Shown piece by piece: positions 34,251 through 35,801 of a stretch of DNA of 64,000 nt. A program made the translations under genes and the position numbers. Where the stretch lies: the UHGV virus genome UHGV-2111131; one strand, given 5' to 3'. How positions within the stretch are numbered: position 1 is the first letter of the stretch; each line of letters opens with the position of its first letter. Below the pieces are notes generated by a model, which was not told the origin of the DNA, did not search any database, and saw only the letters and a program-made list of their open reading frames with translations. This DNA is from a virus.

Positions 34251-34259
34251 ATTAGTGTA

Positions 34260-34451
34260 ATATCGCCTCAATGAATCGTGATTTATAGAGCGATTTAGCT
34301 GTTAGCCGCGACAGGCGCGGCGGTAAGCATGGCTGGGCCTAGTCCTCCCAGACAAACCACCGAGTTGCCAGGTTGACCATGCGCCTAAGTGGCAACTCCG
34401 AAGTGCGTTACGAGCTTCCAGTTTGCCCATCTTCGGGTGGGCGTTTTTTTT
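34260..34451 (+). ncRNA. Candidate structured leader/small RNA ending at the terminator
   Basis: Three stem-loops (GCCGCG/CGCGGC, CTGGG/CCCAG, GAGTTGCCA/TGGCAACTC) and no plausible ORF. Confidence 0.3.
34425..34451 (+). terminator. Intrinsic terminator/attenuator (GCCCATC-UUCG-GGTGGGC plus T8)
   Basis: 7-bp stem with UUCG tetraloop followed by eight T, about 190 nt downstream of the operator. Confidence 0.55.
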
Positions 34452-34632
34452 CAGGGTTTTCGTCATGGTTAGCGACTTTGCGGCGGTTTAGAAACTGACC
34501 ATTAAAGTAAATGCAAACGATGATCTGATGATGGTAGCGGCCTAAGAAGCCAGATGCCACGGGGTATGAGTCGTCCCCCGTCAAAAAATCGACCGCAGAG
34601 TGTCCCCGTCTGTGTATTAGGGAACGGGGAGG

Positions 34633-34713
34633 CACAACAGGTAAGGGCGCTGGTGTGATTAACCAGATGAACGAGAAGGGGCCATCTGTTGGTCAGCGTC
34701 CTTTCCTGTTGCG
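34633..34713 (+). repeat. Long stem-loop, member of AACAGGTAAGRG hairpin family (copy D)
   Basis: Arms CACAACAGGTAAGGG and CCTTTCCTGTTGCG. Confidence 0.45.
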
Positions 34714-34916
34714 TTTTCTTTTCAGCGTAACAGCGGTGCTTAACAGCACTTTGGGTACAGTTCCACGAATTTACGGGTATATCCCGTCATGCTGAAGGCG
34801 CTAATCACGCTGGAAGCCAGGGTTGTGCATCCCCTGTTACCGAATTGCAGCCAGGGCGCGGTGCGCCGAAAAGCATACGGAGGTGGAAGCCCTCGCCGGA
34901 GACGTACCCGGCAAGT

Positions 34917-34992
34917 GATGGTGTAGCTCAGCGGTTAGAGCGGTTGACTGTTAATCAACGGGTCGATGGTTCAAATCCATCCACCATCGCCA
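34917..34992 (+). tRNA. tRNA-Asn (anticodon GTT)
   Basis: 76 nt; acceptor GATGGTG/CACCATC, T-loop GGTTCAAATCC, encoded CCA. Confidence 0.85.
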
Positions 34993-34994
34993 AT

Positions 34995-35070
34995 GCCGGT
35001 TTAGCTCAGTTGGTAGAGCGCCTGCCTTGTAAGCAGGATGTCAGCGGTTCGAGTCCGTTAATCGGCACCA
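34995..35070 (+). tRNA. tRNA-Thr (anticodon TGT)
   Basis: 76 nt, 2 nt after tRNA-Asn; T-loop GGTTCGAGTCC; encoded CCA. Confidence 0.85.
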
Positions 35071-35072
35071 GC

Positions 35073-35158
35073 ACAACAGGTAAGGGTATTTTGCGACGTC
35101 GGAGATCGCCGAGCTTGGCAGAGGGTTCGAATCCCTACGAAGTACCCTTACCGTTGTG
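35073..35158 (+). other. tRNA-like pseudo-element inside a 16-bp-stem hairpin (copy C)
   Basis: Core has GGGTTCGAATCCC T-arm and 7-bp acceptor-like stem but no D-arm or CCA; outer arms ACAACAGGTAAGGGTA / TACCCTTACCGTTGTG. Confidence 0.4.
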
Positions 35159-35299
35159 ATGAAGTGCAGCTCTTTGAAGCAACCAGAAGATAAGCATCTG
35201 GCTTCACAACATAAACCGCAGGAACGACCAATAAACGGTAGTCCGTATGGAGAACACCCCGTTGAGGAAGAGGCCTGGCCGGAACCGTAACCGGCACTA

Positions 35300-35399
35300 C
35301 AACGTTGAGAACACTGGCGTAACGGGGTCATATCCCAATCTACGAATAAATGTTGCGTTGCAGCGTGACAACCAGTGTTCTCAACATTGTGGTGAATGC
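35300..35399 (+). repeat. Stem-loop with conserved loop TAACGGGGTCATATCCCAATCTAC and trailing GGTGAATGC (copy A)
   Basis: 18-bp arms CAACGTTGAGAACACTGG / CCAGTGTTCTCAACATTG. Confidence 0.45.
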
Positions 35400-35576
35400 A
35401 CAGGCTGATGTGCCGCAACTACAGTAGTGCGCGCTTTGCGGGGCTTGCTACAACCCTGTGTCGGAGTTCAGCACCGACCATCACAGTTTGATTCTCTGGC
35501 ATGAGCATAACGCTGAAATAAGTCCAGTCTGGTGCGGCCCGATCACCCGCCGTTAGCTCCACGAAACGGAGCACGT

Positions 35577-35660
35577 AACAGGTAAGAGCATTCTCCTGTA
35601 ACGGGTTCATATCCCAATCTACAGGTCCACCAGGAATGCTCTTTCCGTTGCGGTGAATGC
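35577..35660 (+). repeat. Stem-loop with conserved loop TAACGGGTTCATATCCCAATCTAC and trailing GGTGAATGC (copy B)
   Basis: Arms AACAGGTAAGAGCATTC / GAATGCTCTTTCCGTT. Confidence 0.45.
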
Positions 35661-35801
35661 GGCTAAGCGCACGCGGGGAAATGGTTATATCTGTCCATTA
35701 TTTCTCCTTATTTCCCCGTCCATGGTGGATAACCAGCCAAAGGACACCGGGAAGCACCCGGCACCGCAACCTTATTTCCCAACCAGTAATGAGGTTAATA
35801 A

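Follow-up and report, generated by a model that had tools for sequence, protein, structure and literature searches.

The non-coding interval between dmt and tciA of bacteriophage P1 carries four copies of an RNA hairpin, termed here the clamp hairpin, that belong to a family distributed over phages of the Enterobacterales. By comparative analysis we have established the family, its structure, the strand that folds, and the gain, loss and exchange of its members as whole cassettes, and the copy in phage lambda has been found to correspond to an Hfq-bound RNA of ~63 nt. The sequence under study is a stretch of 64,000 nucleotides of the virus genome UHGV-2111131 (the window; one strand, 5' to 3'). 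It is phage P1: the alignment to the P1 reference proposed in an earlier note, which had been made from the sequence alone, has shown positions 34200-35850 to be 99.6-99.7% identical to NC_005856 and AF234173. That note had described the interval, which constitutes the untranslated leader of the ban operon, repressed by C1, as densely structured and devoid of credible reading frames; the observation is confirmed, and the interpretation offered with it (stable small RNAs, processing signals or degenerate copies of transfer RNAs) is partly supported. The interval can be read as a head-to-tail array on the plus strand that comprises a short terminated leader RNA, two transfer RNAs (tRNAs), four clamp hairpins and three tRNA-shaped modules. 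With a probability of about 0.6, we take it to be an array of portable, co-transcribed RNA cassettes that is cut into tRNAs and small stable RNAs, the clamps serving as scaffolds and the interiors as effectors.

The Clamp Hairpin and Its Four Copies in P1

In the lower stem of the clamp, CAAC-A-GGUAAG is paired with CUUUCCGUUG, leaving a bulged A and a U.U mismatch; this part is conserved in sequence, with a 3' arm of the form CUU(U/A)(C/U)CGUUG. The upper stem co-varies, and the interior of 40-60 nt is non-homologous and exchanged wholesale among phages. The covariance model R1, which has been trained mostly on other phages and without copy 3, recognizes exactly four plus-strand copies in the 64 kb (Table 1), and its minus-strand scores at these copies are 30-47 bits lower. 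Folding of the four hairpins has been compared with shuffled sequences, giving z values of -3.9 to -6.1 with 0 of 200 shuffles as good. The earlier description of four related hairpins is therefore upheld by R1, although arms built on AACAGGTAAG(G/A)G occur in only three of them, the hairpin at 35296-35393 being diverged (ACAACGTTGAGAAC). The lower-stem pattern is matched in full by copies 2 and 4, the bulge is missing in copy 1, and copy 3 still reaches 39 bits with its diverged arms.

The four interiors differ from each other except for a motif of 25 nt in copies 3 and 4 (35319-35343 and 35598-35622, 96% identical), which had been noticed before as a common loop, together with a GGTGAATGC trailer that is likewise present. 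Copy 4 is the P1 copy nearest to the family consensus. Copy 2 begins 2 nt past the CCA end of tRNA-Thr, contains a D-arm-like hairpin and a GGGUUCGAAUCCC T-arm, and is 85% identical to Enterobacter phage BUCT554, and in the interior of copy 3 a GGG/CCC stem is capped by the 7-nt loop GUCAUAU. Copies 2, 3 and 4 are followed by (G)UGGUGAA and a tRNA-shaped module, copy 1 by a U-rich tract. Copy 1 (34633-34730), with no bulged A and with GCGUUUUCUUUU on its 3' side, has not been called by the terminator scan, its loop being too long; together with GCGUUUUCUUUU it might weakly terminate transcription or make it pause.

Covariation and Strand

In alignment A1 (43 sequences), 94.5% of the stem is paired and seven pairs change on both sides, the bulged-A column being invariant (43/43) and the mismatch being U.U in 38 of 43. 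Among 106 distinct sequences collected by the model, 98.3% of cells are paired and 13 of the 18 pairs change on both sides; alignment A4 is one that has been fitted to the model. With either alignment, 0 of 500 shuffles have been found as good, and the paired fraction drops to 37-62% once the register is slid. Furthermore, A1 contains 65 cells with G.U or U.G, compared with no more than 7 that could be A.C, an excess which shows that the folded strand is the transcribed plus strand, that of the tRNAs, and the nearest downstream open reading frame (ORF) is co-oriented with the element at 102 of 118 loci. The covariance analysis that had been suggested thus favors an RNA family on the tRNA strand, both by the covariation and by the G.U bias.

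Distribution Among Phages

The earlier note had thought of P1-like genomes; the family is indeed found there, but it reaches far beyond them, which had been missed. Sensitive blastn searches have matched short pieces of the interval to phages unrelated to P1, and BUCT554 (Uetakevirus), a Klebsiella lambdoid phage and Salmonella phage Sasha have been seen to share the hairpin base with quite different interiors. The named carriers, lambda, HK75, BUCT554, Sasha and Klebsiella lambdoid phages, are of differing types. The pattern AACAGGTAAG-N45-75-CGTTGYGGTGAA has been found in at least 120 contigs of IMG/VR, with 71 distinct cores and ~40 unrelated interiors among the matches listed. Outside P1-like phages a locus usually holds one hairpin, in P1-like phages four or five, and phages of Yersiniaceae, Erwiniaceae and Enterobacteriaceae share 22 identical nucleotides of the clamp. 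One unit lies unannotated in 1092 of 5426 complete Escherichia coli genomes. In GTDB, 22 species representatives match, of which ~20 are real, all of them Enterobacterales or likely contaminants of such origin. The copies in assemblies of Martelella (L141; L-numbers denote the loci compared with the P1 window) and in metagenome-assembled genomes of a Cellvibrionaceae (L142) and an Acidobacteriota (L145) member are true enterobacterial cassettes, one of the three being identical to a P22-like/lambdoid prophage copy; copies in assemblies of such unrelated taxa are most likely due to contamination or mis-binning.

The hairpins could previously not be assigned to an RNA family, and the Rfam scan that was called for has led to the same result, as no Rfam family matches them. 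At permissive thresholds, the scan of the window and 38 related loci has returned only tRNAs, sub-threshold STnc100 and weak echoes of transfer-messenger RNA (tmRNA) and YrlA, in addition to one payload resembling 16S ribosomal RNA (rRNA) and one neighboring int-alpA RNA. The latter (RF02996, 43.7 bits, above threshold) lies at 264-330 on the minus strand of L032, just 3' of a cassette and its terminator. Membership in the Y RNA/YrlA and tmRNA families has been rejected at scores far below threshold, and a search of papers for the literal clamp and trailer sequences has yielded no match.

The fact that the lower clamp does not vary suggests a binding partner with sequence specificity, for which Hfq, via the ARN-rich 5' arm, and a factor recognizing the boxA-like 3' arm may be named as possible candidates. 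A boxA (NusB/NusE) site has been considered since the 3' arm, UGCUCUUU(CC) or UGCUCUUA, resembles the boxA of rrn and lambda; this reading has not been adopted. The boxA-like GCUC part is base-paired, and it is replaced in a compensatory manner in ~15-20% of copies; for the majority arm form a boxA role is still conceivable.

tRNA-Shaped Modules Between the Hairpins

The GUUG of the clamp usually runs on into UGGUGAA and a tRNA-shaped fold. A module of this kind combines an acceptor-like stem of 7 bp with D-like and T-like hairpins whose loops pair, the anticodon arm being replaced by variable RNA. The standard module has a closing stem UGUGGUG/CACCACA, a linker of 2-3 nt, a hairpin B (GCGCA-GGCUGA-UGCGC), a variable middle of 20-150 nt, a hairpin C (GCCGG-AGAUCAGCA-CCGGC) that abuts the 3' strand of the stem, and ACC(C/A)A. 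The loops of hairpins B and C complement each other and vary in concert, from GCUGA/UCAGC to GUCGA/UCGAC. In a skeleton of 31 sequences, four helices including the loop-loop pairing are 95-100% paired, with ten pairs changing on both sides, and one subtype has a canonical D-arm (GCUC-AAUGGC-GAGC) and T-arm (GCCGG-UUCGAUU-CCGGC).

R2, the model of the standard module, has just two hits in the window, 35388-35460 and 35155-35216. The first hit belongs to a module with hairpin B GCACA-GGCUGA-UGUGC, two interior hairpins and hairpin C GUCGG-AGUUCAGCA-CCGAC, and 35386-35492 folds into the cloverleaf that was expected. The second is a minimal module with homologues in Sashavirus, in L081 and in P22-like phages. 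A third module, directly upstream of tciA, is found again in L006, L036 and L113 and resembles STnc100 (RF02076), in which it cannot be placed since its 39.2 bits, over model positions 31-147 of 206, fall below the gathering score of 47. Two further modules end in a hairpin with a GCCGG/CCGGC stem: the one at 34846-34913 precedes tRNA-Asn in P1 and a clamp hairpin in L036 and L113, and that at 35206-35297 has 87% identity to Citrobacter phage phiNP.

The two tRNAs seen before in the interval have been recovered by ARAGORN and by Rfam as tRNA-Asn and tRNA-Thr. With ARAGORN and RF00005, only three real tRNAs have been called in the window, leaving hairpin 2 and the tRNA-shaped modules uncalled. 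P1 also encodes a tRNA-Ile2 (CAU), at 36502-36577.

Gain, Loss and Exchange of Cassettes

A clamp hairpin starts 0-5 nt past the CCA end of a tRNA (trnT and copy 2 in P1; tRNA-Ser and the last hairpin in P7 and D6), after CACCACAAC of a tRNA-shaped module, or ~8 nt past the late terminator tR' in lambdoid and P22-like phages. In Sf6, L and ST64T, a tRNA-Asn stands in the place of the clamp after the same terminator, and Sf6 has been described to carry Asn and Thr tRNAs at its late-terminator site (PMC8022706), the same pair as P1.

The relatives of P1 that have been compared (RCS47, P7, D6, SJ46, Ro157c2YLVW and JL22) differ by whole cassettes. With respect to P1, RCS47 has one extra unit of ~196 nt, consisting of a standard tRNA-shaped module and a clamp hairpin, which is joined at the repeated GTTGTGATGAA. 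This unit (L130 1565-1765, present also in JL22, OP279344 and vB_EcoM-813R1) is bounded by the repeated CCGTTGTGATGAA. P7 is devoid of the copy-2 type of P1, and both P7 and D6 carry a tRNA-Ser in place of Module Y (Table 1) together with a different last hairpin. This tRNA-Ser (UGA) is located at L127 2520-2606 in P7 and at L128 2607-2693 in D6, ARAGORN placing the anticodon at position 33; for the annotators of D6, tRNAscan gave no amino acid. In Ro157c2YLVW an additional tRNA-Tyr is found. Recombination between the 25-nt loop repeats of copies 3 and 4 has removed 279 nt from SJ46, and the resulting hybrid (L131 1695-1786), made of the 5' half of hairpin 3 and the 3' half of hairpin 4, is mispaired and scores 27 bits.

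P7 and D6 have the interior GCGAAUGCCGGAAGCAGAACCGG... in a hairpin; lambda and L079 have it in a tRNA-shaped module. Its occurrence in both types of scaffold indicates that the interiors are portable payloads.

Interiors as Payloads

Several types of interior recur, namely T-arm, CAU-loop and 16S-like ones. In P1 copies 3 and 4 and in several others, a 3-bp stem carries a 7-nt YYCAUAW loop. The recurrent motif ACGG-[3-bp stem]-YYCAUAW-[stem]-AAUCYAC, which is made up in P1 by the 25-nt segments mentioned above and is found also in the cores of L030 and L033 and in others related to them, resembles a CAU anticodon stem-loop, and its 3-bp stem co-varies (GGG/CCC vs GGC/GCC). A hairpin similar to helix 11 of 16S rRNA (AGCUAGAUGGUGAGGUAAUGGCUCACCAUGGCGACGA) makes up the variable middle of the module in L044 (624-670), L052 (1953-1999, minus strand), L055, L111 and L117. 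This payload has been matched to the Rfam SSU models with E 3e-7 and 1e-6, and its compensatory changes relative to E. coli 16S rRNA suggest that a host-rRNA-like shape is maintained.

Phage Lambda LPR2 and Other Known RNAs

The clamp hairpin of lambda (44782-44873) is located 8 nt past the tR' / 6S RNA terminator, reaches 65.2 bits with R1 and is followed by a module closed by UGUGCUG/CAGCACA. The same hairpin and tRNA-shaped module as in other phages make up the tR'-S region at L132 1083-1241 (lambda 44782-44940), and the annotated lambda orf-64 (44621-44815) crosses the 6S RNA terminator into the clamp hairpin. According to a preprint, LPR2 is a ~63-nt Hfq-bound RNA beside 6S RNA that is made only in the lytic cycle and has been detected by sequencing of ligated pairs of interacting RNAs (RIL-seq) and by northern blotting (Silverman et al., bioRxiv 10.1101/2024.10.31.621285). 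The interior and 3' arm of the lambda hairpin are matched exactly, in reverse complement, by the northern probe given there, P844. Above the bulged A, the hairpin (GGUAAG...CUUUCC) measures exactly 63 nt, compared to 76 nt for the whole, and this match with the size of LPR2 fits processing at the lower clamp. The former proposal of a family of stable small RNAs is hence supported for the lambda homologue, which is a detected small stable RNA whose probe lies inside the hairpin.

LPR2 agrees with the P1 copies in the R1 model, the lower clamp, the position in an operon leader and the tRNA-shaped module that comes after it. It differs in being a single small RNA (sRNA) of a Q-dependent late operon, whereas P1 has four copies in an early, C1-controlled operon. 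In the available text, LPR2 has been presented without an analysis of structure, family or conservation. STnc100 shares with the P1 module at 35649-35768 the closing stem and a CCGGG-loop-CCCGG hairpin, and both are found in prophage leaders; in contrast, the common form of the module (GCGCA-GGCUGA-UGCGC ... GCCGG-AGAUCAGCA-CCGGC) gives no STnc100 match at all, and the tRNA-like reading of the STnc100 fold is a proposal of the present analysis. PasD, an Hfq-bound prophage sRNA, has been related to STnc100, the function of the Pas sRNAs not having been worked out (bioRxiv 10.64898/2026.05.13.724894). AgvB and AsxR, anti-sRNAs from the PR' 'moron' site in prophages of enterohaemorrhagic E. coli (Tree et al. 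2014, PMC4104026), resemble the LPR2 type in their niche 3' of PR', in Hfq binding, and in combining a conserved scaffold with a short variable effector. They differ by their length of 51-60 nt, by promoters and terminators of their own and by convergent orientation, and their Rfam models miss P1.

YrlA (RF02553) likewise has a long closing stem and a tRNA-like domain with a T-arm, but the order of elements is different, and the Rfam model responds weakly to the two real tRNAs only (25.6 bits vs 69) and to no hairpin. As further candidates for published homologues, svsR, HnrS, the P22 sncRNAs and PasA/PasC have been set aside, as they are from different loci or no sequence is given. The engineered tRNA scaffold, reportedly described by Ponchon and Dardel in 2007, is said to keep the acceptor stem, D-arm and T-arm and to replace the anticodon arm with arbitrary RNA, and to undergo RNase P and 3' processing with protection from nucleases. 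The scaffold is a laboratory design, whereas the phage module is natural and its processing putative; moreover, in the phage module 5-6 Watson-Crick pairs between the loops often take the place of the D/T elbow, and the module usually ends in ACC(C/A)A with no encoded CCA. The species 1 and 2 RNAs of T4 are non-tRNA small RNAs that are co-transcribed with phage tRNAs, and the C4 RNA of P1 and P7 is said, from work of Hartmann and colleagues in 1995, to be released by RNase P, by which it may provide a precedent for an RNase P-made regulatory RNA in P1. Both are drawn on as analogies only, no likeness in sequence or structure to the P1 cassettes having been seen.

Proposed Processing and Alternative Explanations

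Following the preferred reading, the P1 array would be cleaved by host RNases to yield tRNAs and small stable RNAs. RNase P would act at the 5' end of each tRNA and tRNA-shaped module and thereby also produce the 3' end of the hairpin, and RNase III or RNase E would cut the lower clamp at the bulge. Clamps and tRNA shapes would then act as scaffolds for processing and stability, much like the laboratory tRNA scaffold, and the interiors would be the working parts, i.e., base-pairing or sponge RNAs, or mimics of pieces of tRNA or rRNA. Several observations weigh against this proposal. The direct evidence for a small stable RNA comes from the lambda copy and from none of the P1 copies, and LPR2 had only two RIL-seq partners, PreS and fliC, and has no known function (bioRxiv 10.1101/2024.10.31.621285). 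A strong terminator at 34424-34451 stands between Pban and the array, 180 nt downstream of the promoter, and no internal promoter for the array has been detected in the scan. The deletion in SJ46 shows that copies 3 and 4 are dispensable in this phage. The inter-hairpin modules do not fold significantly better than shuffles (z -0.3 to -1.3), so that the evidence for them is comparative only. In the search for antisense targets of the P1 interiors within the 64 kb, the longest matches have been 9-12 nt and none has exceeded 12, which we have judged, without shuffle controls, to be about chance level. Finally, RNases III, E and P have little sequence specificity and leave 22 order-wide identical clamp nucleotides unexplained, while the invariance of the lower clamp, which had been fixed by the search pattern, is partly an ascertainment effect.

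Some of these points would be met if the elements acted solely in cis, as spacers or processing signals of the leader that aid folding and maturation of the tRNAs, any released small RNAs being by-products; such a leader may also be too structured for Rho loading or provide protective ends on the tciABC-ban mRNA. We consider this unlikely on balance, yet a serious possibility. The elements always reside in untranslated operon leaders, beside tRNAs or just past terminators, and clamp hairpins abut tRNA 3' ends; SJ46 tolerates its deletion, LPR2 has almost no RIL-seq partners, and most of the ~40 unrelated interior types among the matches listed may be neutral filler. Neutral filler, however, should shrink, whereas the interiors stay at 40-60 nt, are structured, fall into recurrent types and move between scaffolds. 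In addition, BUCT554 and Sasha possess cassettes with no tRNA nearby, and LPR2 accumulates and binds Hfq. Decay of tRNA genes, that is, pseudo-tRNAs which have arisen by duplication and erosion and have no present function, would account for the T-arm, D-arm and anticodon-loop-like pieces in the interiors, for the resemblance of the module closing stem (UGUGGUG...CACCACA-ACC) to the acceptor stem of tRNA-Asn (GAUGGUG...CACCAUC-GCCA) and for the interchange of tRNAs and cassettes at the same sites. The idea of degenerate tRNA copies, raised before, is in fact a likely origin of some parts, but as decaying relics the elements are very improbable: neither ARAGORN nor Rfam calls the cassettes tRNAs, helices have been kept intact by compensatory changes in the 106 distinct copies, and a clamp that is identical over 22 nt across three families and co-varies throughout the Enterobacterales reflects purifying selection, not decay. 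An equally remote explanation is that the elements work at the level of DNA, as miniature inverted-repeat transposons, attC-like sites or recombination sequences at module boundaries. They are inverted repeats with variable centers, the sites at which cassettes are gained, lost and exchanged coincide exactly with the repeated GTTGTG(A/G)TGAA and the loop sequences, and the terminal AAC...GTT is loosely similar to attC R boxes. Against this, the asymmetry of G.U over A.C shows that one strand is folded, the orientation is fixed relative to transcription, the upper stem co-varies with no protein-binding sequence being kept, no integrase, transposase or recombinase is linked in the contexts read, and the lambda copy is a detected RNA. 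The elements have therefore not been assigned to integron attC sites or miniature inverted-repeat transposons, and recombination at the clamps is probably a consequence of their conservation rather than its purpose.

That the region is occupied by minus-strand protein genes, plp (a putative lipoprotein) and upl, we find scarcely credible. Their frames are open over 125 and 63 codons and annotated in P1, RCS47 and JL22, and Upl matches two PHROG families, matches that go back to an ORF having been called on the same DNA in other genomes. The hairpins do overlap annotated protein genes, an objection that had been foreseen, but the frames are not conserved. Besides starting at TTG and overlapping tRNA-Thr, plp corresponds to DNA that is broken up into two or three frames in RCS47, P7 and Ro157c2YLVW, has no start in D6 and P7, and in SJ46 retains only residues 26-125. 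The upl frame is absent from P7, D6 and SJ46, and its homologous DNA in unrelated phages shows 1-nt indels, stops in the upl frame and no third-position bias (variable sites over the codon positions, 11/12/13). In the annotation of P7 neither gene has been called, Pfam has no family for either product, and PHROG has none for plp. Long antisense frames over the same RNA modules are present also in unrelated phages, BUCT554 and a Klebsiella phage among them, some being annotated as hypothetical proteins, which looks like an artefact of hairpin-rich sequence. They are seen, for instance, on the minus strand of L003 (2471-2722), L004 (2589-2726 and 2762-2923) and L078 (10162-10704). The PHROG families 14500 and 7444 appear to have been built from such antisense calls.

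Upstream Region and Annotation of the Interval

Across the interval, the P1 records list in order the end of dmt, Op72/Oban, the 'dicF-like region', trnA, trnT, plp, upl and tciA at 35802, so that it is not unannotated (Table 1). The statement that ~1.5 kb contain no credible ORF has withstood tests of frame conservation and codon position, by which no conserved ORF has been found. A 75-codon frame on the minus strand (34408-34635) has been rejected, as coding tests were negative, including over 34456-34565, and the alignment of Module X shows 1-nt indels and codon positions of 19/14/13, i.e., no periodicity. The promoters at Op72/Oban are the sole annotated rightward ones 5' of the array. The UUCG-tetraloop terminator with T8 noticed before is borne out, with 8 pairs in a GC-rich hairpin and U8 directly after it, and is the sole terminator-like site within 34150-35900; apart from it and the U-rich tract after hairpin 1, the supposed attenuator has not been found.

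The dicF-like region is homologous, by alignment, to the ~100 nt located 5' of DicF in prophage Qin (the ydfC-dicB gap), where matches occur in 4243 of 5426 E. coli genomes, and 34306-34400 of the window is ~77% identical to the DicF precursor segment of Qin at L156 1501-1597. It is not the DicF sRNA (RF00039) itself: there is no Rfam match at E<=10, and the DicF part is replaced by the P1 terminator hairpin. Judged by this homology, P1 may produce an analogue at the position of DicF with a different 3' part.

Table 1. Features of the dmt-tciA interval in the P1 window (positions are those of the window).
Feature	Position	Strand	Evidence or remark
C1 operator Op72/Oban with overlapping promoters P1ban and P2ban	34234..34263	+	P1 annotation mapped; inverted repeat I3
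'dicF-like region'	34358..34459	+	P1 annotation; ends in terminator
Intrinsic terminator, GCCCAUC-UUCG-GGUGGGC + U8, 7-8 bp GC stem	34424..34451	+	Fold and terminator scan
Module X, conserved non-coding segment	34456..34565	+	Local blastn; upstream of clamp hairpins in at least 10 P1-unrelated contigs
Clamp hairpin copy 1 (stem 34633-34713), no bulged A, then GCGUUUUCUUUU	34628..34721	+	R1 39.5 bits, E 4e-8; z -3.9
Module ending in hairpin GCCGG-AGACGUAC-CCGGC	34846..34913	+	90-94% identity to L036, L113; fold
tRNA-Asn (GUU)	34917..34992	+	ARAGORN; Rfam 74.5 bits
tRNA-Thr (UGU)	34995..35070	+	ARAGORN; Rfam 72.9 bits
Annotated gene plp, judged a non-gene	35041..35418	-	TTG start; overlaps tRNA-Thr
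Clamp hairpin copy 2 (stem 35072-35158)	35067..35168	+	R1 59.7 bits; z -6.05
Minimal tRNA-shaped module, closing stem UGUGAUG/CUUCACA, T-like hairpin CCAG-AAGAUAAGCAU-CUGG	35155..35216	+	R2 28.0 bits, E 3.5e-5
Module ending in hairpin GCCGG-AACCGUAA-CCGGC, leading into hairpin 3	35206..35297	+	93-96% identity to L036/L113; fold
Clamp hairpin copy 3 (stem 35296-35393, 23-bp arms, diverged clamp)	35293..35402	+	R1 39.0 bits; z -5.4
Standard tRNA-shaped module, closing stem UGUGGUG/CAUCACA	35388..35489	+	R2 32.3 bits, E 2.5e-6; cloverleaf as minimum free energy fold; family covariation
Annotated gene upl, judged a non-gene	35419..35610	-	No conserved frame
Module Y, hairpin GCUCC-ACGAAAC-GGAGC	35490..35573	+	Immediately 5' of clamp hairpins in many lambdoid prophages
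Clamp hairpin copy 4 (stem 35574-35652)	35569..35663	+	R1 71.7 bits; z -4.9; repeat D2
STnc100-type tRNA-shaped module, closing stem UGCGGUG/CACCGCA	35649..35768	+	Rfam RF02076 39.2 bits, E 2.8e-6; z -3.7

Implications for Phages of the Enterobacterales

The P1 genome, its tRNAs, and LPR2 and STnc100/PasD as isolated sRNAs are known already. For the clamp family, its covariation, the tRNA-shaped pairing, the exchange of payloads and the fourfold presence in P1, no Rfam family or paper has been found in a limited literature search. If the proposed reading is true, LPR2 and STnc100/PasD would be parts of one modular RNA system that is common to P1, lambda, P22-like, epsilon15-like, 9NA-like and SSU5-like phages and follows the grammar of a tRNA or terminator, then a clamp hairpin, then a tRNA-shaped module. 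In annotations, plp, upl and the look-alike 'hypothetical proteins' would have to be removed and RNA features put in their place. The function would be testable by payload swaps, and the cassettes would offer natural scaffolds for stable RNA expression in enteric bacteria.

A more far-reaching idea, which we hold to be rather unlikely as it stands, is that phages of the Enterobacterales exchange an 'RNA display' system, in which the clamp and a natural tRNA scaffold would present fast-evolving payloads, several of which copy host RNA parts (T-arms, D-arms, CAU anticodon-like loops and a 16S rRNA helix-11-like hairpin) and would act as decoys or sponges. The scaffolds would be cut from operon leaders by the tRNA- and rRNA-processing enzymes of the host, the decoys would be directed at host factors such as tRNA- or rRNA-targeting defense nucleases, colicins or modification enzymes, and the P1 array, placed beside the phage's own tRNAs and the colicin/tellurite-resistance-like tci genes, would be the largest one known. 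The turnover of the payloads and their likeness to tRNA and rRNA suggest a role in an arms race, which would tie phage tRNA clusters to anti-defense biology.

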